Notes under the pieces: generated by a model
The model's database searches: none
Seen by the model: the letters and a program-made list of their open reading frames with translations, nothing else
What the model was told of the DNA's origin: nothing
Program-made: the position numbers and the translations under genes
In this document: in pieces, positions 11,972 through 64,000 of the stretch
Position numbering within the stretch: the stretch's first letter is position 1
Layout of the letters: each line of letters starts with the position of its first letter
From: Dromaius novaehollandiae
Lineage: Eukaryota
DNA length: 64,000 bases
Reading direction: 5' to 3'
NCBI RefSeq assembly: GCF_036370855.1
Contig: NC_088128.1
Location: 356,899-420,898, forward strand

Positions 11972-12256
<285 letters not shown>

Positions 12257-12289
12257 CGGCGGGGGGGGGCGGGGGGCACCCTTGGGTGC

Positions 12290-13300
12290 GGGGGGTGGTG
12301 TCCTGGGAGCATCCTTGGGTGGCCCCAAGATGGCGGTTGCGGCGTAGGAGCACCCTTGGGTGGCCTCAAGATGGTGGCCATCGCCTAGAAGCGCTTTTGG
12401 GTGCTTTCAGGGTGGTGGCCATCTTCTAGGAGCACCCTTGGGTGTTCTCAAGATGGTGGTTGTGTCCTAGGAGCTCTTTTGGATGTTCTCAAGATGGTGG
12501 CCATCTCCTGGGAGCACTCTTGGGTGTCCCCAAGATGGCGGCCATCTCCTAGGAGCGCTCTTGGGTGTCTTCAAGATGGCGACCATCTCCTACAAGCACT
12601 TTTGGATGTTCTCAAGATGGTGGTCATGTCCTGGGAGCACCCTTGGGTGGCCTCAAGGTGATGGCCATCGCCTAGAAGCACTTTTGGATGTTCTCAAGAT
12701 GGTGGCCATGTCCTAGGAGCACCTTTGGGTGCTTTCAGGGTGCTGGCCATCTTCTAGGAGCGCCCTTGGGTGTCCTCAAGATGGTGGTCATCTTCTGGGA
12801 GCACCCTTGGGTGTCCTCAAGATGGCGGTTGTGTCATAGGAGCACGCTTGGGTGTTCTCAAGATGGTGGCCATCACCTAGAAGCGCTTTTGGGTGTCCTC
12901 AAGATGGTGGTCATCTTCTGGGAGCACTCTTGGGTGTCCCCAAGATGGTGGTCATGTCTTAGGAGCACCCTTGGGTGTTCTCAAAATGGCGGTTGTGTCG
13001 TAGGAGCACCCTTGGGTGGCCTCAAGATGGTGGCCATCTCCTGGGAGCACCTTTGGGTATTCTCAAGATAGTGGTCATCTTCTGGGAGCACCCTTGGGTG
13101 TCCTCAAGATGGTGGCTATCTCTTAGAAGCACTTTTAGATGTTTTCAAGATGGTGGCCATGTCCTGGGAGCACCCTTGGGTGTTGGGGGGCGTGGTGGGT
13201 GTCTCTTGGGAGCACCCTTGGGTGTCCCCAAGGTGGTGGCCATCTCCTAGAAGCACTTTTGGATGTTCTCAAGATGGTGGCCATGTCCTAGGAGCGCCCT
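12290..13300. repeat. 41-bp minisatellite of about 24 copies, each carrying a YY1-like AAGATGG(C/T)GGCCATC motif, in the TLCD3B 3' UTR
   Basis: Unit 'ctaggagcacccttgggtgttctcaagatggtggccatctc'. Exact AAGATGGCGGCC at about 12530 and 12330. Confidence 0.85.
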
Positions 13301-13475
13301 TGGGTGTCACCAGCCCCCCCCGGGTGCCCCCAGCGTCCCCAGGACCGTAGCAGCACCCAGGGGTGCCCTCGGGGTGGGGCCCCGGGCCAGTAGCAGCCCC
13401 CCGGGGACGCCTGGGCCCCCTGGGGACGCCTGGGCCCCCCCCGGGGCGGCGCCGCGCAGCAGCAATAACCTCAGT

Positions 13476-13481
13476 ATTAAA
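13476..13481 (+). terminator. TLCD3B: Candidate poly(A) signal ATTAAA for TLCD3B (3' UTR about 1.2 kb)
   Basis: This is the only AATAAA or ATTAAA hexamer on the + strand between the TLCD3B stop (12256) and the convergent MVP 3' end. It sits in a short AT-containing island (cagtattaaaggagcc). Confidence 0.3.
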
Positions 13482-15289: not shown

Positions 15290-16150
15290 GACTGCGCCTG
15301 CGCGCGCCCCCCCTTCCCCCACCACAGCCAGTGCGCATGCGCGTTCTCCTCCTCGGCCCCCCCCCCGCACTCCCGCCGCGGCTACCGCGCCTGCGCGCTC
15401 TCCTTCCACCCCCCCCCCACAAGGCTGCCGCGCCTGCGCTCTCTCCCCAACCCCCCCCCCCCGCCGCCGAGGCTACTGCGCCTGCGCGCTCCCTTTCTTC
15501 CCCCCCCCCGCGGCTACCGCGCCTGCGCGCTCTCCTTCCACCCCCCCCCACAAGGCTGCCGCGCCTGCGCTCTCTCCCCAACCCCCCCCCCCGCCGCCGA
15601 GGCTACTGCGCCTGCGCGCTCCCTTTCTTCCCCCCCCCCGCGGCTACCGCGCCTGCGCGCTCTCCTTCCACCCCCCCCACAAGGCTGCCGCGCCTGCGCT
15701 CTCTCCCCAACCCCCCCCCGCCGCGGCTACTGCGCCTGCGCGCTCCCTTTCTTTCCCCCCCCCCGCGGCTACCGCGCCTGCGCGCTCCCTTCTCCCCTCA
15801 CAACCCCCCCCGCGGCTACTGCGCATGCGCGCTCCCCTTCTCCCCCCTCCCGCCTCGGCTACTGTGCTTGTACGTCCCCCCCCCCCCGCCGCGGCTACTG
15901 CGCCTGCGCGCTCCCCTTCTCCCCCCCCCCCCCCCCCGGCCGCGGCTACCGCCCCTGCGCGCTCTCCCTTCGACTCCCCCCCCCCCCGCGCCGCGGCTAC
16001 CGCGCATGCGCGCTCCTCTTCCACCCCCCCCCCGGCTGGGTCTACTGCGCATGCGCGCTCCCCCTTCTCTCCCCTCCCCGCCGCGGCTACTGCGCATGCG
16101 CCCTCTTCCCCCCCCCCCCCCCGCGGCTACTGCGCCTGCGCCAGACATCC
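15290..16150. repeat. About 47-60-bp minisatellite in an MVP intron carrying NRF1-type GCGCATGCGC / GCGCCTGCGC palindromes
   Basis: 'cgcggctactgcgcatgcgcgctcc' at 15826, 16000, 16046 and 16093. ctgcgcctgcgcgctc variants throughout. Confidence 0.85.
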
Positions 16151-35259: not shown

Positions 35260-38100
35260 GGTGCCGGGGGGCTTATGGGTGCTGGGGGGGGCCTATGGGT
35301 GCTGGGGGGGCCTAGGGGTGCTGGGGTGGGGGCCTATGGGTGCTGGGGGGGGTCTTACGGGTGGTGGGGACCTGGGGGTCTTCTGGGTGTTGGAGGTCCT
35401 ATGGGTGTTGGAGGTCCTACAGCTGTTGGAGGTCCTACGGGTGCTGGGGGGGTCTTGTGGGTGCTGGGGGGGGTTATGGGTGCTGGGGGGGCCTATGGGT
35501 GCTGGGGGGGGTCTTATGGGTGGTGGGGACCTGGGGGTCTTATGGGTGTTGGAGGTCCTACAGGTACTGGAGATCCTATGGGTGCTGGGGGAGGTCCTAT
35601 GGGTGCTGGGGGGGGCTATGGGTGCTGAGGTAGGTCTTATGGGTGCTGGGCGAGGTCTTATGGGTGCTGGGGGGGTTATGGGTGCTGGGGGGGTCTTACG
35701 GGTGCTGGGGGGGTCTTATGGGTGCTGGGGGGCCTAGGGGTGCTGGGGGGGATTTATGGGTGCTGGGGTGGGGGCCTATGGGTGGTGGGGACCTGGGGGT
35801 CTTCTGGGTGTTGGAGGTCCTATGGGTGTTGGAGGTCCTACGGGTGCTGGGGGGGTCTTATGGGTGCTGGGGGGGGACTTATGGGTGCTGGAGGGGGTTT
35901 ATGGGTGCTGGGGGGGGACTTATGGGTGTTGGGGAGGCCTTATGGGTGGTGGGGACCTGGGAGTCTTCTGGGTGTTGGAGGTCCTATGGGTGTTGGAGGT
36001 CCTACAGGTGTTGGAGGTCCTACGGGTTCTGGGGGGGTCTTATGGGTGCTGGGGGGGTTTATGGGTGCTGGGGGGGGACTTATGGGTGCTGGGGAGGCCT
36101 TATGGGTGGTGGGGACCTGGGGGTCTTCTGGGTGTTGGAGGTCCTACAGGTGCTGGGGGTCCTACGGGTGCTGGGGGGGGTCCTACGGGTGCTGGGGGTC
36201 CTACGGGTGCTGGGGGTCCCAAGGTGCTGAGGTGTTTTGGGTGCTGGTGGTCCCGTGGGTGCTAGGGGTGGGACAAGGGGGTCCCAGGGGTGCAGGGGGG
36301 GTCCCAGGGGGCTCCCAAGGGTGCTGGGTGGTCCCAGGGGCTCCCAGGGGTGCAGGTGGCTCCCACAGGCCCCAGGGGCTCCCGGGGGTCCCATGGGTGC
36401 AAGGGGGGTACCAGGAGGCTCCCAAGGGCTCCCATGGGTGCAGGGGGATCCCAAGAGGTCCCAGGGTCTCCCACGGGTCTCAGGGGCTCCCAAGGGCTCC
36501 CATGGGTGCAGGGGGATCCCAAGAGGTCCCAGGGTCTCCCACGGGTCTCAGGGGCTCCCAAGGGCTCCCATGGGTGCAGGGGGCTCCCGGGGGCACCCAC
36601 GGGTGCAGAGGGGTCCCAAGGGCTCCCATGGGTGCAGGGGGATCCCAGGGGCTCCCAGGGATGCAGGGGGGTCCCAAGAGGTCCCAGGGGCTCCCAAGGG
36701 TGCAGGGGGGTCCCAGAAGGTCCCAGGAGCTCCCACGGGTCTCAGGGGCTCCCAAGGGCTCCCATGGGTGCAGGGGGATCCCAAGAGGTCCCAGGGTCTC
36801 CCACGGGTCTCAGGGGCTCCCAAGGGCTCCCATGGGTGCAGGGGGATCCCAAGAGGTCCCAGGGTCTCCCACGGGTCTCAGGGGCTCCCAAGGGCTCCCA
36901 TGGGTGCAGGGGGCTCCCGGGGGCACCCACGGGTGCAGAGGGGTCCCAAGGGCTCCCATGGGTGCAGGGGGATCCCAGGGGCTCCCAGGGGTGCAGGGGG
37001 GTCCCAAGAGGTCCCAGGGGCTCCCATGGGTGCAGGGGGTTCCCAGGAGGTCCCAGGGGCTCCCAGATGCTCCCAGGAGCTCCCATGGGTGCAGGGGGGT
37101 CCCAAGAGCTCCCAGGAGCTCCCACGGGTCTCAGGGGCTCCCAGGGGCTCCCATGGGTGCAGAGGGGTCCCAAGGGCTCCCATGGGTGCAGAGGGGTCCC
37201 GGGGGCACCCACGGGTGCAGGAGGTCCCAGGTGCTCCCAGATGCTCCCAGGAGCTCCCACGGGTGCAGAGGGCTCCTAAGGGCACCCAGGGGTGCAGGGG
37301 GCTCCCGGGGGCTCCCAGGGGTGCAGGGGGGTCCCAAGAGGTCCCAGGGGCTCCCATGGGTGCAGGGGGTTCCCAGGAGGTCCCAGGGGCTCCCAGATGC
37401 TCCCAGGAGCTCCCATGGGTGCAGGGGGGTCCCAAGAGGTCCCAGGAGCTCCCACGGGTCTCAGGGGCTCCCAAGGGCTCCCACGGGTGCAGAGGGGTCC
37501 CAAGGGCTCCCATGGGTGCAGGGGGGTCCCAGGAGCTCCCATGGGTGCAGAGGGCTCCCGGGGGCACCCACGGGTGCAGAAGAGTCCCAAGGGCTCCCAT
37601 GGGTGCAGGGGGCTCCCGGGGGCACCCAAGGGTGCAGAGGGGTCCCAAGGGCTCCCAGGGGTGCAGGGGGGTCCCAAGAGGTCCCAGGGGCTCCCACGGG
37701 TCTCAGGGGCTCCCAAGGGCTCCCATGGGTGCAGAGGGGTCCCAGGGGCACCCACGGGTGCAGGAGGTCCCAGGTGCTCCCAGATGCTCCCAGGAGCTCC
37801 CACAGGTGCAGGGGGCTCCCAAGGGCACCCATGGGTGCAGGGGGCTCCCGGGGGCACCCAAGGGTGCAGAGGGGTCCCAAGGGCTCCCAGGGGTGCAGGG
37901 GGGTCCCAAGAGGTCCCAGGGGCTCCCACGGGTCTCAGGGGCTCCCAAGGGCTCCCATGGGTGCAGAGGGGTCCCAGGGGCACCCACGGGTGCAGGAGGT
38001 CCCAGGTGCTCCCAGATGCTCCCAGGAGCTCCCACAGGTGCAGGGGGCTCCCAAGGGCACCCAGGGGTGCAGGGGGCTCCCGGGGACACCCAGGGGCGCG
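35260..38100. repeat. Arrays in an MVP intron: (GGGTGCTGGGGGGGTCTTATGG)n, then (GGGTGCAGGGGGCTCCCAAGGGCTCCCATG)n with about 320-bp higher-order repeat
   Basis: Direct reading. These produce the 843-aa and 750-aa artefactual + strand ORFs. Confidence 0.9.
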
Positions 38101-40399: not shown

Positions 40400-43090
40400 A
40401 AGAACAACGAGCAGCCGCTGACCCTATAGGGACTATGGAAAAGCCCCTGCTGCAGAGCGGCTGAGGAGGTGGGGCTATAGGGGCCATGAAGGGCCCATAG
40501 GGGCCATGAGGGGACGCTGTAGGGGCTATAGGGGCTATAGGTACCTGCTGGAGCTGCTCGCCGGGGGAGAGGGGGAAGGGCTCCTGGGCCAGGCGCACCT
40601 CCAGGTCGCCGTGGCGCAGCCGCATAGGGGCTATAGGGACCACAAAGGGGCCATAGGGACCAGAAGAAGTGCTATAGGGGCCATAGGGGCTATAGGTACC
40701 TGCTGGAGCTGCTCGCCGGGGGAGAGGGGGAAGGGCTCCTGGGCCAGGCGCACCTCCAGGTCACCAGGGCGCAACCGCATAGGGGCTATAGGGACCACGA
40801 AGGGGCCATAGGGACCAGAAGAAGTGCTATAGGGGCCACAGGGGCTATAGGTACCTGCTGGAGCTGCTCGCCGGGGGAGAGGGGGAAGGGCTCCTGGGCC
40901 AGGCGCACCTCCAGGTCACCAGGGCGCAGCCGCATAGGGGCTATAGGGACCACAAAGGGGCCATAGGGACCAGAAGAAGTGCTATAGGGGCCATAGGGGC
41001 TATAGGTACCTGCTGGAGCTGCTCGCCGGGGGAGAGGGGGAAGGGCTCCTGGGCCAGGCGCACCTCCAGGTCACCAGGGCACAGCCGCATAGGGGCTATA
41101 GGGATCATGTGGGTGCCATAGGGACTGCGGGGGGAGGCTATAGGGGCCATAGGGGCTATAGGTACCTGCTGGAGCTGCTCGCCGGGGGAGAGGGGGAAGG
41201 GCTCCTGGGCCAGGCGCACCTCCAGGTCACCAGGGCGCAGCCGCATAGGGGCTATAGGGACCACAAAGGGGCCATAGGGACCAGAAGAAGTGCTATAGGG
41301 GCCATAGGGGCTATAGGTACCTGCTGGAGCTGCTCGCCGGGGGAGAGGGGGAAGGGCTCCTGGGCCAGGCGCACCTCGAGGTCACCGTGGCGCAGCCGCA
41401 TAGGGGCTATAGGGACCACGAAGGGGCCGTAGGGACCAGAAGAAGCGCTATAGGTGCTATAGGGGCTATAGGTACCTGCTGGAGCTGCTCGCCGGGGGAG
41501 AGGGGGAAGGGCTCCTGGGCCAGGTGCACCTCCAGGTCACCAGGGCACAGCCGCATAGGGGCTATAGGGACCACGAAGGGGCCGTAGGGACCAGAAGAAG
41601 TGCTATAGGTGCTATAGGGGCTATAGGTACCTGCTGGAGCTGCTCGCCGGGGGAGAGGGGGAAGGGCTCCTGGGCCAGGCGCACCTCCAGGTCACCAGGG
41701 CGCAGCCGCGTAGGGGCTATAGGGACCACGAAGGGGCCATAGGGACCAGAAGAAGTGCTATAGGTGCTATAGGGGCTATAGGTACCTGCTGGAGCTGCTC
41801 GCCGGGGTAGAGGGGGAAGGGCTCCTGGGCCAGGCGCACCTCCAGGCCGCCGTGGCGCAGCCGCATAGGGGCTATAGGGACCACGAAGGGGCCGTAGGGA
41901 CCAGAAGAAGTGCTATAGGGGCCATAGGGGCTATAGGTACCTGCTGGAGCTGCTCGCCGGGGGAGAGGGGGAAGGGCTCCTGGGCCAGGCGCACCTCGAG
42001 GTCACCGTGGCGCAGCCGCATAGGGGCTATAGGGACCACGAAGGGACCATAGGGACCAGAAGAAGTGCTATAGGGGCCATAGGGGCTATAGGTACCTGCT
42101 GGAGCTGCTCGCCGGGGTAGAGGGGGAAGGGCTCCTGGGCCAGGCGCACCTCCAGGTCACCGTGGCGCAGCCGCATAGGGGCTATAGGGACCACGAAGGG
42201 GCCGTAGGGACCAGAAGAAGTGCTATAGGTGCTATAGGGGCTATAGGTACCTGCTGGAGCTGCTCGCCGGGGTAGAGGGGGAAGGGCTCCTGGGCCAGGC
42301 GCACCTCCAGGTCACCAGGGCGCAGCCGCATAGGGGCTATAGGGACCACGAAGGGGCCATAGGGACCAGAAGAAGCGCTATAGGTGCTATAGGGGCTATA
42401 GGTACCTGCTGGAGCTGCTCGCCGGGGGAGAGGGGGAAGGGCTCCTGGGCCAGGCGCACCTCGAGGTCACCGTGGCGCAGCCGCATAGGGGCTATAGGGA
42501 CCACGAAGGGGCCATAGGGACCAGAAGAAGCGCTATAGGTGCTATAGGGGCTATAGGTACCTGCTGGAGCTGCTCGCCGGGAGAGAGGGGGAAGGGCTCC
42601 TGGGCCAGGCACACCTCCAGGTCACCGTGGCGCAGCCGCATAGGGGCTATAGGGACCACGAAGGGGCCATAGGGGACCAGAAGAAGTGCTATAGGGGCCA
42701 CAGGAGCTATAGGTACCTGCTGGAGCTGCTCGCCGGGGGAGAGGGGGAAGGGCTCCTGGGCCAGGCGCACCTCCAGGTCACCGTGGCGCAGCCGCATAGG
42801 GGCTATAGGGACCACGAAGGGGCCGTAGGGACCAGAAGAAGCGCTATAGGTGCTATAGGGGCTATAGGTACCTGCTGGAGCTGCTCGCCGGGGTAGAGGG
42901 GGAAGGGCTCCTGGGCCAGGCGCACCTCGAGGTCACCGTGGCGCAGCCGCATAGGGGCTATAGGGACCACGAAGGGGCCATAGGGACCAGAAGAAGTGCT
43001 ATAGGGGCCATAGGGGCTATAGGTACCTGCTGGAGCTGCTCGCCGGGGTAGAGGGGGAAGGGCTCCTGGGCCAGGCGCACCTCGAGGTCA
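40400..43090. repeat. 135-bp tandem array of about 19 copies in the MVP intron downstream of exon c2. Each unit is the last 85 or so nt of exon c2 ([26 protein letters not shown]) plus the CAGCAG|gtacct donor plus about 50 nt of intron.
   Basis: Unit 'gggctataggtacctgctggagctgctcgccgggggagagggggaagggctcctgggccaggcgcacctccaggtcaccgtggcgcagccgcatagg...'. The authentic exon is at 43027-43222. Confidence 0.9.
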
Positions 43091-43222
43091 CCGTGGCGCA
43101 GCCGGGCCTGGCCGGCGCCGTCGAGCAGCGTCTCCCCGCCGGGCGCCCGGGCGGCCGGGTGCAGCACCACGCAGTAGTGCCGCGCCGGCACCGTCACCAT
43201 GCGCGCCGGCGCGAACACCACC
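43027..43222 (-). CDS. MVP: MVP coding exon c2: (R)[65 protein letters not shown]
   Basis: Acceptor ctatag|G (the repeat motif ctatag serves as the 3' splice site). Donor CAGCAG|gtacct. Matches human '[20 protein letters not shown]...[28 protein letters not shown]'. Confidence 0.85.
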
Positions 43223-55500: not shown

Positions 55501-55739
55501 GCCCTATAGGGCCTATAGGTGCCCCAGGGCCGCGCCGGCCCCCCCCAGGCCCGTGAATCCCCTCAGGGCGGCGGCGCCGCTGGCGGCCATTTTCCCTCCC
55601 CCCCCCCGCCCACGTCTTCCCGCCTCGCCGTTGCTAGGCGACCGGCGCCGCCATTTTGCGCGCCCTGCCCGCCCCGGCGGCGCGCATGCGCCACGCGCCG
55701 CTCCTTTCCCCCCCCCCCTCCCCTCCGCACGCGGGCGCG

Positions 55740-55860
55740 GCGGCGCGCTGCCATTGGGCGGCGGGAGGGGCGGGGCGCGCTGCCATTGGGCGGCGGCGGC
55801 GCGGGGGGCGGGGCGGGGCGGCGGCGGGCGCCTCGTTCAAACGGTCGCGGCGGCGGCGCG
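55740..55860 (+). promoter_or_regulatory. KIF22: KIF22 core promoter with two inverted CCAAT boxes 32 bp apart and a CHR element, preceding a candidate ATG at 55861
   Basis: ccattgg at 55751-55757 and 55783-55789. TTCAAA (CHR, reverse of TTTGAA) at 55836-55841. NRF1 palindrome GCGCATGCGC at 55682-55691. 'gccattttg' YY1-like cores at 55586 and 55643. The gene sits in a CpG island. This is the canonical G2/M (NF-Y plus CHR) promoter architecture expected for a mitotic kinesin. Confidence 0.6.
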
Positions 55861-55949
55861 ATGGCGGCGGCAGGTCGCGGCGGCGGCGCCCGGGGGTGGG
55901 GGGGGGAAGACGGGGAGCGGGACGGGGGTGGCCCCGGGGGGGGGGGTGG

Positions 55950-56940: not shown

Positions 56941-57012
56941 AACCGTGGGGGGGGGCTGTCACCCGCACCCACAGGCGACAGCACCCATGGGTGCCGGGGG
57001 CACCGGGTGCAG

Positions 57013-57119
57013 GTGTGCGTGCGGCTGCGGCCCGGCGCCGCCGGCGAGGAGCCCCGGGTGCTGCCCGTGGACGCCCGCACCCTCCGCCTCCTCCACGGCC
57101 CCGGCGCCACCGAGTACCG
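57013..57119 (+). CDS. KIF22: KIF22 coding exon (motor domain start): VCVRLRPGAAGEEPRVLPVDARTLRLLHGPGATEY(R)
   Basis: Acceptor gggtgcag|GTG at 57011-57012. Donor CG|gtaaaa at 57120. Matches human 'VRVAVRLRPF...' at the start of the kinesin motor domain. Confidence 0.75.
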
Positions 57120-57192
57120 GTAAAACAGGGTGACAAAGGCGCCGGGTGACACCCATGGGTGCCCCCCGCGTCACCCTTGTCGCCGGTTGTAG

Positions 57193-57320
57193 CTTCGACG
57201 CCGTCTACGGCCCCGGCGCCTCGCAGAGCGACGTCTACCTGGGCTCCGTGCGCCCGTTGTTGTCCCACCTGGCGCAGGGCCGCAACGTCACCGTCCTCGC
57301 CTACGGGCCCAGCGCCGCCG
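57193..57320 (+). CDS. KIF22: KIF22 coding exon: (R)FDAVYGPGASQSDVYLGSVRPLLSHLAQGRNVTVLAYGPSAA(G)
   Basis: Acceptor ttgtag|C. Donor G|gtgagt. Matches human '[43 protein letters not shown]' (first half of the P-loop). Confidence 0.85.
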
Positions 57321-57394
57321 GTGAGTCCCCCCCCCGCCGCACGACAGCACCCATGGGTGCCCCAGCACCCTGAGCACCCCGTTTGCGTCCCCAG

Positions 57395-57525
57395 GGAAGA
57401 CCTACACCATGCTGGGCAGCGCCGAGGAGCCGGGCGTCATCCCCCGGGCCGTGCGGGACCTGCTGGGGCTGGCGGGGCCCTGTGCCACTGTCACCGCGTC
57501 CTACCTGGAGATCTACCAGGAGCGG
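57395..57525 (+). CDS. KIF22: KIF22 coding exon: (G)[43 protein letters not shown]
   Basis: Acceptor gtccccag|GG. Donor CGG|gtgagg. Matches human '[24 protein letters not shown]...SYLEIYQEK' (P-loop GKT). Confidence 0.85.
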
Positions 57526-57589
57526 GTGAGGCGGGGGCACCCATGGGTGCTGCGCGGCGGGGGGTGCCACCACCCACCCTTTCTTTCCC

Positions 57590-59040
57590 ACCCAAATCTG
57601 GGTGTTTTTGCCTCAGGGTGACGCCCAGCGGGTGCCACCTCCCCGTCAGCCATTTTGTCCTCCTCAAATCTGGGTGTTTTCACCTCAGGTTGACGCCCAG
57701 TGGGTGCTGCCACCCATCACCCTTCGTTTCCCACCCAAATCTGGATATTTTTGCTTCAGGGTGCCACCCAGCGGGTGCCACCGCCCCATCAGCCATTTTG
57801 TCCCCTCAAAGCTGGGTGTTTTTACCTCAGGGTGACGCCCAGCGGGTGCCACCACCCCGTCAGCCATTTTGTTTCGCTCAAATCTGGGTGTTTTCACTTC
57901 AGGGTGACGCCCAGTGGGTGTTACCACCCCATCAGCCATTTTGTCTCCTCAGATCTGAGTGTTTTTGTCTCAGGGTGACACCCAGTTGGTGCCACCACCC
58001 TGTCAGCCATTTTGTCCCCCTTAAATCTGGGTGTTTTTACCTCAGGACGACACCCAGTGGGTGCTGCCACCCATCACCCTTCGTTTCCCCCCAAATCCAG
58101 GCTGTTTTCACCTCAGAGTGACACCCAGTGGGTGCCACCACCCTGTCAGCCATTTTGTCCCCCCAAATCTGTGCTTTTTCCACCCCGTCAGCCATTTTGT
58201 CCCCCTCAAATCTAGGTGTTTTCATCTCAGGGTGACACCCAGTGGGTGCTGCCACCCATCACCCTTCGTTTCCCATTTGAATCTGGGTGTTTTCACCTCA
58301 GGGTGACGCCCAGCGGGTGCCACCACCCTGTCAGCCATTTTGTCCCCCTCAAATCTGGGTGTTTTTACCTCAGGGTGACACCCAGCAGGTGCCACCACCC
58401 CATCAGCCATTTTGTCCCCCCAACCCGCACGTTTTCCACCCCGTCGGCCATTTTGTCCCCCCAAATCTGTGCGTTTTCCACCCTATCGGCCATTTTGTCC
58501 CCCAAACCCACACGTTTTCCACCCCGTCGGCCATTTTGTCCCCCAAACCTGTGTGTTTTCACCCCATCAGCCATTTTGTCCCCCAAACCCACACGTTTTC
58601 CACCCTGTCAGCCATTTTGTCCCCCAAATCCGTGCTTTTTCCACCCTGTCGGCCATTTTGTCCCCCAAACCTGCGCATTTTCCACCCCGTCGGCCATTTT
58701 GTCCCCCAAACCTGCGCATTTTCCACCCCGTCAGCCATTTTGTCCCCCCAACCCGCACGTTTTCCACCCCGTTGGCCATTTTGTCCCCCAAACCCACATG
58801 TTTTCCACCCTGTCAGCCATTGTGTCCCCCCAAACCCGTGCGTTTCTGCCCCGGGTGACCCCACAGCAGGTGCCACCATCTTGTCAGCCATTTTGTCCCC
58901 CAAATCCGTGCTTTTTCCACCCTGTCAACCATTTTGTCCCCCCAACCCGTGCGTTTTCCACCCCATCAGCCATTTGTCCCCCCAACCCACACGTTTTCCA
59001 CCCTGTCGGCCATTTTGTCCCCCAAACCCGCGCGTTCCCA
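57590..59040. repeat. About 59/118-bp minisatellite in KIF22 intron 4. Units carry CAGCCATTTTGTCC (YY1-like core) and acceptor-like TGTTTTTACCTCAG|GGTGAC.
   Basis: Direct reading. About 12 copies of 'atctgggtgtttt(t/c)acctcagggtgacgcccag'. Later copies read 'ccgtcggccattttgtcccccaaacc'. Confidence 0.9.
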
Positions 59041-59072
59041 CCCCGGCTGACCCCGTCCCCCACCCCGCGCAG

Positions 59073-59688
59073 CTCGTGGACCTGTTCGCCCCGCCGGGCC
59101 CCCCGCTACGCCTCCGCGACACCTCCCCGCCGGCGGTGCCGGGCTTGACCGAGGTGCCCGTGCGCGACGCCGCCGCCTTCGAGCGCCTCTTCGTCCCCGC
59201 CGCCCGCCGCCGCCGCCGCGCCGCCGCCACCCGCCTCAACGCCGCCTCCAGCCGGGGCCACGCGTTGCTGCTGCTCCGCCTGCGCCCCCCCGGCGTCACC
59301 TTGCTGCTGGGGGACCTGGCGGGCGCCGAGGACAACCGGCGCACGGGCAACGCCGGCCGGCGCCGCCTGCGCGAGAGCGGTGCCATCAACGCCTCCCTGG
59401 GGGCCTTGCGGCGGGTGGTGGCCGCCCTGGCGCGGGGTGACGGCCGCCGGCGGCGTCACCCGGTGCCGTACCGCGACAGTAAGTTGACGCGGGCGCTGCG
59501 CGACGCCCTGGGCGGCTCGGCCCGCGCTCTGCTGCTGGCCGCCGTGGCGCCGGGGCCCCGCGAGGCCGCCGCCGCTCGCGCCGCCCTCGACTTTGCCGCC
59601 GCTGCCGCCGGCGTCGTCAACCGCGACGTGGTGGTGGCTGCACCGCCGGAGCCACCGTCGGAGCCGGAGCCGGGTGACGGGGAGCAGG
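59073..59688 (+). CDS. KIF22: KIF22 large coding exon (switch I/II and neck): LVDLFAPPGPPLRLRDTSPPAVPGLTEVPVRDAAAFERLFVPAARRRRRAAATRLNAASSRGHALLLLRLRPPGVTLLLGDLAGAEDNRRTGNAGRRRLRESGAINASLGALRRVVAALARGDGRRRRHPVPYRDSKLTRALRDALGGSARALLLAAVAPGPREAAAARAALDFAAAAAGVVNRDVVVAAPPEPPSEPEPGDGEQ
   Basis: Acceptor ccgcgcag|CTC at 59071-59072. Kinesin signatures are present: SSRGH (SSRSH), DLAGAE (DLAGSE), VPYRDSKLTR. The first in-frame-compatible donor is CAGG|gtgagg at 59689. The same donor sequence is repeated about 14 times in the downstream array, so the 3' boundary could be a later copy. Confidence 0.75.
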
Positions 59689-59689
59689 G

Positions 59690-60560
59690 TGAGGCCAAAC
59701 GGGGACGTTGGGTGACGTTGGGGGACGTTGGGGGACATTGGGGACCACAGTGAGGCCAAGGGGGGGCGTTGGGGACCAGGGTGAGGTCACCGGGGGGACG
59801 TTGGGGGATGTTGGGGACAAGGGTGAGGCCAAGGGGAGACGTTGGGGACCAGGGTGAGGCCAAGGGGAGACGTTGGGGACCATGGTGAGGCCAAGTGGGG
59901 ACATTGGGGGACATTGAGGACAGGGATGAGGCCAAGGGGGGACGTTGCGGGACATTGGGGACAAGGATGAGGCCACCAGGAGGATGTTGGGGGACATTGG
60001 GGACCAGGGTGAGGCCAAGGGGAGGACATTGGGGACCACAGTGAGGCCAAGGGGAGACGCTGGGGACCAGGGTGAGGCCGAGCGGGGACATTGGGGGACG
60101 TTGGGGACCACAGTGAGGCCAAGGGGAGACGCTGGGGACCAGGGTGAGGCCAAGGGGGGACGTTGGAGACCAGGGGACATTGGGGACCAGGGTGAGGCCA
60201 CTGGGGAGACATTGGGAGATGTTGGGAGACATTGGGCGATGTTGGGGACAAGGATGAGGCGGGGGGGACACGTTGGGGGACATTGGGGACCAGGGTGAGG
60301 CCAAGGGGGATGTTGGGGACCAGGGTGAGGTCACCAGGGGGATGTTTGGAGATGTTGGGGGACGTTGGGGGACATTGGGGACCAGGATGAGGCCAAGCGA
60401 GGACATTGGGAGATGTTGGGGGACGTTGGGGACCGGGGTGAGGCCAAAGGGGGACATTGGGGACCCGGTGAGGACAGGGGGGCGCCGGGGACCTGTGGGG
60501 GTGACAAGGAGGGACATTGGGGACATGGGGGGACACTGGGGACACAGAGGGGACACTGGG
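59690..60560. repeat. About 60-bp minisatellite directly abutting KIF22 exon 5. It contains about 14 copies of that exon's donor context CCAGG|GTGAGGCCAAGG.
   Basis: Exon end 'ggagcagggtgaggccaaacgggg' versus repeats 'ggaccagggtgaggccaaggggagacgttgg'. Confidence 0.85.
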
Positions 60561-60600
60561 GGGACATTGGGGTCCCCTCACCCCCTCGCTCCCTCCGCAG

Positions 60601-60634
60601 GTGCCGCTGACGTCCCCGACACCCCGCAGGCCGG
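60601..60634 (+). CDS. KIF22: KIF22 small coding exon: (G)AADVPDTPQA(G)
   Basis: Acceptor ccctccgcag|GTG. Donor GG|gtaggc. Phase links exon 5 (phase 1) to the next exon. Weak conservation. Confidence 0.45.
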
Positions 60635-61273
60635 GTAGGCACCCATGGGTGGGGGGCCTGGGGGGTCCCCGGGGTGTCCCCAGGGTGCCCGAGGGGGGTT
60701 CCTAGGGTGGCACAGGGCCCCCAGAGTGTCCTCGAGGGTCCCTAGAGTGTCACAGGGTCCCCAGGGTGCTCCGGGGGGGTCCCTAGGGTGGCACAGGGTC
60801 CCCAGGGCGTCCCAGGGTGCTCTGGGGGGTCTCTAGGGTGTCAGAGGGTCCCCAGGGTGTCCCAGGGTGCCCTGGGGGGTCCCTAGGGTGGCAGAGGATC
60901 CCTGGGGGGGTCCCTAGGGTGGCGCAGGGTCCCCAGGGTGTCCCAGGGTGCCCTGGGGGGTCCCTAGGGTGGCAGAGGACCCCTGGGGGGGTCCCTAGGG
61001 TGGCGCAGGGTCCCCAGGGTGTCCCCATGGTGCCGGGGGGGGTCCCCAGGGTGTCCCCAGGATGCCCGGGGGGTCCCTAGGGTGTCCTGGGGTCTCTGGG
61101 GTGTCCCCAGGGTGCCTGGGGTGTTCTCTAGGGTGGCACGGGGTGCCCGGGGGGGTCCTGGGGGGTCCCTAGGGTGTCCTGGGGTCCCCGGGGTGCTTTG
61201 GGGGGTCCCTAGGGTGGCACAGGGTGCCCTGGGAGGTCCCCGGCTAACGGGTGCCCCCCCGCCGTGTCCCCAG

Positions 61274-61331
61274 GGCGCCGGCGTCCCCCTCGCTGCTGCG
61301 CCGCCTCGACGACGCCCAGGAGCTGCTGGAG
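61274..61331 (+). CDS. KIF22: KIF22 coding exon: (G)APASPSLLRRLDDAQELLE
   Basis: Acceptor gtccccag|G. Donor GAG|gtgagc. Resembles human 'DPAMLERLLSLDRLLAS'. Confidence 0.5.
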
Positions 61332-61888
61332 GTGAGCGCTGGCACCCGCGGGCGACGGGGACACCCATGGGTGCTGGGGACACCCGCAGGGGACCAGGGA
61401 CACCCTCGGGTGCTGGGGACACCCACCGGGTGCATGTGACACCCGCGGGCGAGGGGGACACCCATGGGTGCTGGGGACACCCACAGGTGCTGGTGACATC
61501 CACTGAGTGTTGGTGACACCCACGGGGGACCAGGGACACCCACGGGTGCCAGTGATACCCGTGGGGGACCAGGGACACCCGTGGGTGCCGTGACACCCAC
61601 CAGGTACCGGTGACACCAGTGGGTGGACAAATGATACCTGCCGGGTGGCAGTGACACCCATGGGTGACAAGGGACACCCACTGGGTGCTGGTGACACCCA
61701 CTGGGTGCCAGTGACACCCCTGGAGGGACAAGTGACACTCTCTGGGTGCCAGTGACACCCACCGGGCACTGGCAACACCCATGGGGGGACAAGTGACACC
61801 CACTGGGTGCCAGTGACACCCCTGGAGGGACAAGTGACACCCACCGGCTGCCGGTGACACCCATGGGTGCTCCCCTGCTCCTCCGCAG

Positions 61889-62023
61889 AAGCTGAAGGCC
61901 CGGCACCCGCCCACGCCGGCGGCACCCCGGGGGGCTCCCGGCACCCCGCCCCCCTCCCCGCCCCAGGGCCCAGGCGTCCGGGTGTCCCCGGCCGAGGCGC
62001 CCGTGGTGCTGCTGCGCAGGAAG
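61889..62023 (+). CDS. KIF22: KIF22 coding exon: KLKARHPPTPAAPRGAPGTPPPSPPQGPGVRVSPAEAPVVLLRRK
   Basis: Acceptor ctcctccgcag|AAG. Donor AAG|gtgggt. Phase 0 to 0. Basic and proline-rich linker. Weak conservation. Confidence 0.45.
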
Positions 62024-63212
62024 GTGGGTGCTGGCGGCGGCGGGGGGCACCCATGGGTGCTGGGGGGGCACCATGGGTGGTGGTGGGGGCACCCGTGGGT
62101 GCTGGGGGGGCACCATGGGTGATGGTGGGCACCCAAGGGTGGTGGTGGGGGCAGCCATGTTTGGGGGGTCACTCGTGGGTGCTGGTGGGGGGCACCCATG
62201 GGTCCTGGGGACAGCCGGGGTGCTAGTGGGGGGCACCCATGGGCACTGGGGACACCCAGGGGTGCTGGTGGAGACCCACGGGTGCTGGTGGGGGGCACCC
62301 ACAGGTGGTGGGGGGGCCCCATGGGCACTGGGGACACCCGTGGGTGCTGGTTGGGGTCACCTGTGGGCACTGGGGACACCCAGGAGCGGTGGTGGGGGGC
62401 ACCCATGGGTGCTGGTGGGGACCCATGGCTGGTGGGGGGGGCCCCCATGGGCACTGGGGACACCCTTGGGTGCTGGTGGGGACCTACGGGTGCTGGTTGG
62501 GGACACCTGTGGGTGGGGGGACCCATGGGTGCTGGTGGGGGGGCACCTGTGGGCCCTGGGGACACCCATGGGTGCTGGTGGGGACCCACAGGTGCTGGTT
62601 GGGGTCACCTGTGGGTGTTGGGGGGCCCCCATGGGCACTAGGGACACCCATGGGTGCTGGTTGGGGTCACCTGTGGGCACTGGGGACACCCAGGAGCGGT
62701 GGTGGGGGGCACCCATGGGTGCTGGTGGGAACCCATGGCTGGTGGGGGGGGCCCCCATGGGCACTGGGGACACCCATGGGTGCTGGTGGGGATCACCTGT
62801 GGGTGGGGGGACCCGTGGGTGCTGGTGGGGGGGCACCTATGGGCACTGGGGACACCCATGGGTGCTGGTGGGGACCTACAGGTGCTGGTTGGGGACACCC
62901 ATGGGTGTTGGGGGGCCCCCATGGGCACTGGGGACACCCATGGGTGCTGGTGGGGACCCACAGGTGCTGGTTGGGGTCACCTGTGGGCACTGGGGACACT
63001 CATGGGTGCTGGTGGGGACCCATGGGTGCTGGGGGGGGCACCTATGGGCCCTGGGGACACCCATGGGTGCTGGTGGGGACCCATGGGTGCTGGTGGGGGG
63101 GCACCTATGGGCCCTGGGGACACCCATGGGTGCTGGGGGGGGGTCACCTGTGGGTGGGGGCCCCCGTGGGTGCCGGGTAGCACCCATGGGTGCCACCACG
63201 GTGTCCCCGCAG

Positions 63213-63377
63213 GGCGGGGGGGGCTGGGAGGCGCGGCGTCGCCCCGAGCTGCTGGCGGCCGCCGGGCGCCGGGTGCTGCGGGGGCTCAACGGGGACCCGG
63301 GGGCCCTGCGGCGGGTGGGCACCCGCCGGGCCCGGCGCCTCCTGGCCTGGCGCCGCCACCGCGGCCCCTTCGCCCGC
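63213..63377 (+). CDS. KIF22: KIF22 coding exon (helix-hairpin-helix DNA-binding region): GGGWEARRRPELLAAAGRRVLRGLNGDPGALRRVGTRRARRLLAWRRHRGPFAR
   Basis: Acceptor gtccccgcag|GGC. Donor CGC|gtgagt. Matches human '[43 protein letters not shown]'. The gene continues past the window end. Confidence 0.7.
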
Positions 63378-64000
63378 GTGAGTGTCACCCGCGCGTGTCC
63401 CCCCGCGTCACCCCGCGTCACCCTACGTCGCCCCATGGGTTCCCTCGCGCACCCGTCACCTCCCCTGGTGGCACCCGTGGGTCCCTGCCACCTCCCTGTG
63501 TCACCTAAGTGTCACCTCTGGGTCCCCTGTCACCCCCCCATGTCACCTAGTGACACCCATGGGTCTCCTGTCACCCCCCCCGTGCCACCCATGGGACCCT
63601 CATAACCCCCCCGGGTCACCCCAGTGTCACCCTTGGGTCTCCTGTCACCCCCCCATGTCACCTAGTGCCACCCCTGGGTCCCCATCACCCCCCTTGTGTC
63701 ACCCCTGGGTCCCCTGACACCCCCCAGGTCACCTCAGTGTCACCCTTGGGTCTCCTGTCACCCCCCCATGTCACCTAGTGCCATGTGGGTTCCTGTCACC
63801 CCCCAGTGTCACCCAGTGTCACCCCTGGGTCTCCCATCACCCCCCAGTGCCACTCCTGGGCTCCCATCACCCCCCCGTCACCCAGTGTCACCTCTGGGTC
63901 CCCGTCACCCTCCCAGTGCCACCCTTGGGTCTCCATCACCCCCCAGTGCCACTCCTGGGCTCCCGTCACCCCCCCGTCACCCAGTGTCACCTATGGGTCC

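Follow-up and report, generated by a model that had tools for sequence, protein, structure and literature searches.

A 12–14-nt palindrome of avian KIF22, a candidate constrained element amplified in emu introns

The KIF22 gene of the emu, Dromaius novaehollandiae, runs past the 3' end of the 64-kb stretch of contig NC_088128.1 analysed here (positions 356,899 to 420,898; hereafter the window), and one 12–14-nt palindrome is common to seven of its introns or exons. The 12-nt form, CACCCATGGGTG, was by far the most frequent 12-nt palindrome of the window; it occurred 22 times against a mean of 0.06 expected from dinucleotide shuffles, and more than one copy was seen in 0 of 100 shuffles. All but one of the copies fall within positions 56982–63192, in KIF22; the remaining one, at 37826, belongs to an MVP intron (Table 1). 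The extended, 14-nt palindromic form is GCACCCATGGGTGC. On balance, we think it probable that this sequence is an old dyad-symmetric element of avian KIF22, itself probably under constraint, which in the emu was also amplified by sequence stuttering, that is, by local imperfect tandem amplification within introns.

The emu locus was compared with the KIF22 loci of the pintail Anas acuta (L001), the swan goose with its two paralogues (L003 and L004), the American alligator (L005), and a tortoise (L002). No match to the palindrome was found in the alligator and tortoise loci, even at 2 mismatches. In the pintail, intron 2 holds GCACCCATGGGTGC at +30 from the donor; TACCCATGGGTGC precedes the RLKKRRPP exon, 37 nt from its acceptor, and CACCCATGGGTGC precedes the VEDLAAVPGF exon, 15 nt from its acceptor. 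Both goose loci contain the intron 2 copy, at +26, as well as a copy before the RLKKRRPP exon; a third goose copy is situated at the 3' edge of an array following the TLCD3B stop codon, ~35 nt before an ATTAAA signal. The orthologous sites in the emu are 57150 in intron 2 and 61858 before the KLKARHPP exon. At least two copies thus predate the emu/duck split and have been kept intact while their surroundings were rewritten. Conservation at orthologous intron positions, which is looked for in splicing elements, was found for these two copies only, that of intron 2 and that near the 3' end of intron 7, the latter being 15–37 nt from the acceptor in the birds compared.

Multiple alignment of emu, pintail, and goose sequences revealed the invariant block CACCCATGGGTGC in intron 2 and the invariant block ACCCATGGGTGCTC in intron 7, and the flanks of the conserved copies could hardly be aligned, even for pintail against goose. 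In all three birds, intron 2 is free of repeats and retains the 13-mer at a similar donor offset (+31, +30, and +26 in emu, pintail, and goose, respectively). In an unbiased test, the longest word shared by emu and pintail was determined for 16 orthologous 50-nt intron margins. Long shared words were obtained at the two conserved sites only (13, 12, and 14 nt; p<0.002), the longest being of 13 nt in intron 2 and of 14 nt in intron 7, and all other margins shared 5–9 nt (p>=0.018). The palindrome block also ranked first in an unbiased scan for 12-mers shared by the two species.

The few changes seen at these sites are informative about what is preserved. The pair just outside the 14-mer of intron 2 is G..C in the goose (GGCACCCATGGGTGCC) and A..T in the pintail (AGCACCCATGGGTGCT), i.e., the two species have different 16-nt palindromes with both sides changed. 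The sole substitution within the conserved sites, C to T at position 1 of the pintail intron 7 copy (TACCC..GGGTG), leaves a T..G pair, which in RNA could still pair as a U.G wobble. The central CATG does not vary at these sites. Because the outer pair changed symmetrically, the substitution is compatible with U.G pairing, and the centre does not vary, the comparison favours self-complementarity as the constrained property, leaning slightly towards the RNA level. The dyad symmetry is likely to serve some function, given the unique shared words, the diverged flanks, and the two-sided change of the outer pair; a role in splicing would be plausible.

Predicted hairpins were modest, with free energies of −6.4 kcal/mol for the 14-mer and −8 to −9.7 kcal/mol for the 16-mers. 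In intron 2 of all three birds, the predicted hairpin caps a longer stem, in which G-rich sequence on the 5' side pairs with C-rich sequence on the 3' side. No family was matched in a search of Rfam. The possibility that the A of the palindrome serves as a branch point was rejected as inconsistent, with better branch sites located downstream in intron 2 of goose and pintail (CCUAAC and UUUUAAC).

In the scenario that we propose, the two ancestral copies are those in the middle of the short intron 2 and ~20–37 nt upstream of the acceptor of the K/RLK..PP exon. Self-complementarity would be the preserved property, most likely in the transcript, as a GC-rich hairpin with a 5–8 bp stem, a CAUG loop, and a stability of approximately −6 to −10 kcal/mol. 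Placed either 10–25 nt 5' of likely branch sites or shortly after donors, such a small hairpin could help intron definition in a pre-mRNA rich in G and C runs. In the emu lineage, stuttering would have turned the intron 7 copy into 16 units; the related array of 49 units that fills intron 8 and the isolated copies (one each in intron 3, coding exon 2, and the 5' margins of introns 4 and 6) would complete the present set.

The same dyad could instead act in DNA, as a 14-bp site in the gene body that binds a homodimeric protein (a transcription or architectural factor) and was multiplied by stuttering. Perfect dyad symmetry and symmetric co-variation of the outer pair would be expected of such a site, copies occur regardless of feature type (intron, exon, and probable 3' untranslated region), and other arrays of the window carry motifs resembling known factor sites (CGCGCATGCGCG at 15876–16122 and GCCATTTTG in intron 4). 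We nevertheless consider a DNA site improbable: the T..G of pintail intron 7 breaks the symmetry of the DNA and retains the RNA pairing, and the 12-mer was met in the searchable literature as cloning primers only. Moreover, the half-site GCACCCA is not known to match the site of any factor and fits, to our knowledge, none of the RFX, EBF, p53, T-box, KLF, MTF-1, GCM, and NRF1 consensus sequences.

Several observations weigh against a constrained RNA element. Within 100 nt of the 15 mapped MVP exons, no copy was found at up to 2 mismatches, except in a single array of variant units that adjoins one of the exons. This array also contains the exact copy at 37826, ~290 nt from the nearest MVP exon. 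The palindrome is therefore not a general splice-site signal, and the splicing regulator suggested in the initial annotation is contradicted as a general rule. One emu copy is coding sequence, and one goose copy is at the edge of an array in the probable TLCD3B 3' untranslated region. The compensatory evidence is a single event, the hairpin z-scores are weak (−0.2 to −2.5), and a perfect palindrome would fit a DNA-level function equally well. The birds compared represent three genera (those of emu, pintail, and swan goose). Finally, repeat-family words are common to the two species emu and pintail in the orthologous introns 1, 4, 5, and 9, so that some sequence memory exists in the arrays.

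Proximity to exons, which had first drawn attention to the palindrome, requires a separate assessment. Each copy named in the initial annotation exists, at 56982, 57150, 57348, 57538, 60640, 61362, 62048, and 63181, no more than 3 nt from where it had been placed; those at 61858 (19 nt before the 61889 acceptor), 61459, and 61655 had been missed. That the palindrome flanks almost every exon was overstated, as an intronic copy within 36 nt was counted for 10 of the 17 junction sides and exons 1 and 5 have none. In emu KIF22, it is absent from the sides of exons 1 and 5 and from the acceptor sides of exons 6 and 7. The 56982 copy had been regarded as intronic, upstream of an acceptor at 57013; according to the RefSeq protein, exon 2 begins upstream of this position, at 56975, and the copy is coding. 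HRVQ is common to emu and ostrich KIF22 and RVQ to ducks too. Since no AG occurs between the palindrome and these conserved RVQ codons, the copy is coding in any in-frame model.

Only 618 of the 6715 bases of KIF22 intron sequence in the window (9%) lie outside the arrays detected by Tandem Repeats Finder (TRF), the arrays making up 91%, and proximity to exons is therefore largely forced. The unique margins beside KIF22 exons are 11–86 nt long. In introns 2 and 3, every position is within 45 nt of a splice site. The arrays of introns 7 and 8 reach to 11–19 nt of the splice sites, so that the copies nearest to the exons are terminal units, and the copies of introns 4 and 6 are within a thin unique margin before unrelated arrays. 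Where unique sequence is confined to the exon margins, little can be read into a motif beside exons, and closeness to exons is mostly an architectural by-product. The location beside exon boundaries is true, but its bias is largely structural. The earlier observation was thus real but over-read; its alternative, a footprint of repeat expansion, holds for most copies, and the two ancestral copies show evidence of constraint. What is still to be explained is the presence of the same 12–14-mer in four unique-sequence introns and in one exon.

No copy was present in the other ~10.8 kb of unique window sequence. In the goose, 141 kb around the two KIF22 paralogues (118 kb of which are intron 4 arrays) contained 6 copies, all at 3 homologous sites. 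From these controls and from MVP, the exact palindrome is rare and restricted to the locus.

The origin of the emu arrays can be followed best in intron 7. Its perfect copies are located at +31, +128, and +324 from the donor and 19 nt before the acceptor, and this last unit (61858–61869) is the ancestral copy. In pintail and goose, intron 7 is only ~100–114 nt long and contains 1–2 units with one perfect or near-perfect copy, in the order GTGACAC..., GTGACA(A/C)CACCAGCACCCCA..., palindrome. The GTGACAC...palindrome segment of these species aligns with the final 45 nt of emu intron 7, and the emu units (GTGACACCCAnnGGGTGCC...) are recognisable duplicates of this segment, which indicates either an expansion in the emu lineage or a contraction in Anseriformes, from an ancestral state of one or two units. 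The proposal that the palindrome seeds a minisatellite can be retained for intron 7, where the array grew from the ancestral copy, and intron 8 holds a related array.

In the pintail orthologue of intron 8 (L001:8216–8309, 94 nt), neither a copy nor a counterpart of the array was found. Since the related array of emu intron 8 has no counterpart there, the intron 7 family would also have crossed exon 8. The emu intron 8 array is real, as first described; it is, however, composed of degenerate units and not of a simple 19-mer repeat, with higher-order periods of 82–310 bp. Of its perfect copies, one is at +25 from the donor, ten are interior, and one precedes the acceptor by 20 nt. The terminal units, at 62048 and 63181, have the 14-nt palindromic form GCACCCATGGGTGC; that both are perfect is not significant (~0.06). 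Array copies vary mostly at positions 6 and 7, towards G or C (weak-to-strong), as GC-biased conversion would predict. The intron 9 array contains near-copies, e.g., CACCCATGGGTC at 63554, and belongs to the same family as the array of the orthologous pintail intron.

An octamer of the intron 8 unit, GCTGGTGG, accounts for a separate observation: 17 of its 19 window copies are located in 62181–63096, compared to 9 expected in the whole window. It is identical to the E. coli Chi octamer. This identity is probably coincidental, though it recalls the Chi-like core of classical minisatellites.

These arrays also give rise to a serious, if unlikely, contender, according to which the palindrome is a functionless by-product of repeat dynamics, simply the core of a minisatellite family of this locus. 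The single copies beside exons would be the last units of former arrays, and symmetry would be kept mutationally, by quasi-palindrome template switching or conversion between copies. Relaxed relatives of the form CACCC-NN-GGGTG are indeed the cores of several other arrays (at 6.6–7.2, 12.3–13.3, and 36.4–38.0 kb and in KIF22 introns 4, 6, and 9). The units contain CACCCAAGGGTG or CACCCAGGGGTG in the MVP intron array 36412–38024, CACCCAGTGGGTG in the first array of 57586–59045 (intron 4), and CCCTAGGGTG in the array 60671–61240 (intron 6), 3' of the 60640 copy. Other repeat words common to emu and pintail introns 1, 4, 5, and 9 and the exon-adjacent location forced by the array architecture fit this explanation as well, and template-switch correction would also give symmetric double changes such as that of the outer pair in intron 2.

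Other data fit a by-product poorly. The palindrome alone is conserved in the unique margins, and intron 2 retains the 13-mer in three birds in which it is non-repetitive. Correction of one arm by the other cannot maintain the invariant central CATG. The flanks of the emu single copies were no more alike than composition-matched shuffled flanks, an ill fit to recent duplication of units of at least 20 nt; on this result, the single copies are not obviously recent duplicates of longer units, though the 20 nt CGACAGCACCCATGGGTGCC common to the intron 3 and exon 2 copies are a suggestive exact extension. The pintail intron 3 has no palindrome copy. Nor are palindromic cores a general property of arrays: among 94 arrays of the window, the longest palindrome per unit averaged 5.30 nt versus 5.27 nt in shuffled units. 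Hairpin-driven slippage, or palindromes seeding arrays as a general rule, was rejected, since these units are no richer in palindromes than shuffled ones.

It may also be supposed that the first and last copies of an intron pair in the pre-mRNA (12–14 bp, approximately −23 to −30 kcal/mol), looping out the array and bringing donor and branch site together. Perfect copies stand at either end of introns 7 (at +31 and 19 nt before the acceptor) and 8 (at +25 and, on the acceptor side, at 20 nt), the predicted self-duplex of the 14-mer reaches −29.8 kcal/mol, and the cognate margins of intron 8 form the strongest duplex in the matrix (−70.1 kcal/mol). However, duplexes between cognate 5' and 3' margins had a mean of −49.4 kcal/mol versus −51.1 kcal/mol for non-cognate ones (standard deviation 9.3), and specific bridging of intron ends was rejected because cognate margins pair no better than non-cognate ones. 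Introns 4 and 6 are one-ended, intron 5 has no copy, each interior unit would compete for the same pairing, perfection at both ends is below significance in intron 8, and the conserved copies of ducks are in short introns needing no bridge. Bridging is thus very improbable as an explanation of the palindrome.

The window is emu dot-chromosome DNA, and its setting corresponds to a recently described phenomenon. On avian dot chromosomes, most intron sequence is degenerate minisatellite, for which the name "sequence stuttering" was introduced (Hron et al. 2026, PMC12954441); intronic minisatellites of dot chromosomes have also been described in the zebra finch telomere-to-telomere papers (10.1101/2025.10.14.682431; 10.1101/2025.10.17.683159). 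Like the genes described there, KIF22 has GC-rich, gene-dense surroundings, imperfect local tandem repeats confined to its introns, and intact exons (the 458-aa open reading frame (ORF) is unbroken), and its arrays differ between species. Copying of exon edges is also seen. For KIF22 itself it is suggestive only, namely the 20-nt identity of exon 2 and intron 3 and the intron 8 donor GTGGGTGCTGG, which resembles the repeat unit. Stuttering arrays are normally isolated in individual introns, with structure and sequence differing between related species (Hron et al. 2026, PMC12954441). In contrast, one 12–14-nt palindrome is spread over seven introns or exons of emu KIF22, and two of its copies have kept their positions on both sides of the deepest split among living birds. 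The general phenomenon is already known, and a conserved palindromic seed was not found described in the literature.

Three other systems bear comparison. Runs of G or C are reportedly intronic splicing enhancers in short GC-rich vertebrate introns, from the work of McCullough and Berget and, in 2004, of Yeo et al. The KIF22 introns resemble these in having short G and C runs near the splice sites of small GC-rich introns, and the motif itself includes CCC(A) and (U)GGG. These enhancers are degenerate genome-wide triplets, in contrast to the single, gene-restricted 14-nt palindrome with conserved symmetry in KIF22. Complementary bridging elements at intron ends occur in the (GT)n/(AC)n introns of teleosts and as intron zippers in yeast. 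Emu introns 7 and 8 are similar in having self-complementary copies at both ends and differ in that pairing is not specific to cognate ends, a pair is missing from most introns, and the conserved copies are in short introns. Quasi-palindromes are subject to template-switch mutation (Ripley-type correction), and GC-rich minisatellites have a Chi-like core (Jeffreys). Common features are the perfect palindromes with symmetric changes, the GC-rich units of ~20 nt, and the 17 occurrences of GCTGGTGG in intron 8; unlike in Ripley-type correction, the central CATG is conserved, which correction of the arms leaves unexplained. The Jeffreys core GGGCAGGAXG was absent.

Tandem repeats make up 82% of the window (TRF mask), and GC content along it varies between 0.57 and 0.77. 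The genes present are TLCD3B-like, MVP, and KIF22, whose exons and promoters largely constitute the repeat-free islands. The naming of the last gene as KIF22 in the initial annotation was borne out: eight GT-AG exons at 57013–63377 give an unbroken 458-aa ORF, which matches the RefSeq "kinesin-like protein KIF22 [Dromaius novaehollandiae]" at 100% identity, contains the kinesin motor domain (Pfam PF00225, E=1.3e-65), and has human KIF22 (6nje) as its top PDB match (E=2.5e-74). The N-terminus of the emu RefSeq protein reads MAAAG-DSTHGCRGHRVQ-VCVRLRP. The database proteins of bird KIF22 were from emu, ostrich, and Anseriformes only.

Table 1. Coordinates of genes, KIF22 features, and palindrome copies in the window (offsets are from the splice donor)
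Feature	Position	Strand	Details
TLCD3B-like gene	~8.8–13.5 kb	+	TLC domain
MVP	14307–45954	−	15 exons mapped, with partial MVP proteins from protein search
Sole exact palindrome copy outside KIF22	37826–37837	.	inside the MVP intron array 36412–38024
KIF22	from 55861, past window end	+	
KIF22 promoter	~55560–55850	+	two CCAAT boxes, cell-cycle genes homology region (CHR)-like TTCAAA, GCGCATGCGC
KIF22 exon 1	55861–55873	+	ATG...GCAG then GT; N-terminus of the emu RefSeq protein maps here
KIF22 exon 2	56975–57119	+	RefSeq protein reads MAAAGDSTHGCRGHRVQVCVRLRP
Palindrome copy in exon 2	56982–56993	+	coding, S-T-H-G-C
Intron 2	57120–57192	+	73 nt, non-repetitive; palindrome 57150–57161 at +31, ancestral and conserved copy
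Intron 3	57321–57394	+	74 nt; palindrome 57348–57359 at +28, emu-specific
Intron 4 single copy	57538–57549	+	unique 5' margin, +13; followed by unrelated arrays 57586–59045
Intron 6 single copy	60640–60651	+	unique 5' margin, +6
Intron 7 array	61343–61869	+	16 motif-like units, 4 perfect (61362, 61459, 61655, 61858)
Intron 8 array	62042–63193	+	49 degenerate motif-like units of ~20 nt, 12 perfect
Intron 9, cut by window end	63378–64000	+	array units contain CACCCCTGGGT

The promoter layout is common to emu (55560–55860) and pintail (L001 2990–3065), with CCAAT box(es), the CHR-like TTCAAA, and GCGCATGCGC; in both species, the GCGCATGCGC palindrome stands immediately 5' of ATGGCGGCGG. We take GCGCATGCGC to be an NRF1-type dimer site. 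The anseriform RefSeq KIF22 proteins begin 21 codons further upstream (MRARRPPIGSRP...), across the CCAAT and TTCAAA elements. Since this reading passes through promoter elements, the anseriform start codon is probably mis-called. Emu exon 8 (61889–62023) corresponds to two pintail exons (L001 7977–8028 and 8169–8215) with a 140-nt intron between them, and this intron, within a low-complexity P/A-rich linker, was either lost in the emu or gained in ducks. The pintail annotation cuts KIF22 into two gene models (L001 3001–7983 and 8150–9522). In the swan goose, a single 4.8-Mb chromosome carries both KIF22 loci (at ~1.02 and 4.28 Mb), and a TLC-domain gene precedes each of them. The intron that follows the EIYQE exon spans ~79 kb (L003 5469–84493) and ~39 kb (L004 6011–45158) in the goose, 1.5 kb in the emu, and 2.2 kb in the pintail.

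Among the other arrays of the window, that at 15876–16122 has a 45-bp unit with the 12-nt palindrome CGCGCATGCGCG, which presumably holds the NRF1-type dimer site GCGCATGCGC. The units of the intron 4 arrays (57586–59045) contain GCCATTTTG, which we take to be YY1-like, and the orthologous pintail intron 4 array (L001 4491–6481) has the related words CCATTTTG and CCCCCAAATC. A ~1-kb array separates the TLCD3B-like stop codon from ATTAAA in both emu (12255–13480) and goose (L003 2037–3195). The emu unit is 41 bp long with the core GCACCCTTGGGTG. At the 3' edge of this array, the goose has a perfect CACCCATGGGTG; the emu has CACCCAGGGGTG at 13364, and the orthology of the two is ambiguous in the alignment. 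The length of MVP, ~32 kb, is due to filling by tandem repeats. In its intron 40471–43104 (− strand), the 3' part of the adjacent exon (26 residues) is repeated 16 times with a 155-bp period at 40545–42949, an example of exon stuttering that TRF reports as period 155 with 17 copies.

A stronger form of our reading may be put forward only tentatively. The palindrome would be a bird-specific, self-complementary KIF22 element of 14–16 nt that arose after the split from crocodilians, its dyad symmetry having been selected for ~100 million years amid introns rewritten within tens of millions. It would act either as a hairpin safeguarding splice sites beside unstable arrays or as a protein site, and would have been the seed of the emu minisatellites. 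If true, stuttering introns would have yielded a first case of a constrained "anchor" element.

Stuttering has been described only recently, and what seeds or limits the arrays, and how splicing copes with them, are questions that the KIF22 locus may help to address. It is a concrete and testable case, with an ancestral 14-mer conserved at two sites and a visible array seed in one lineage. If the symmetry is functional, birds would have evolved a cis-element in an unusual genomic environment; if it is not, the locus would calibrate how long short words persist in stuttering introns.

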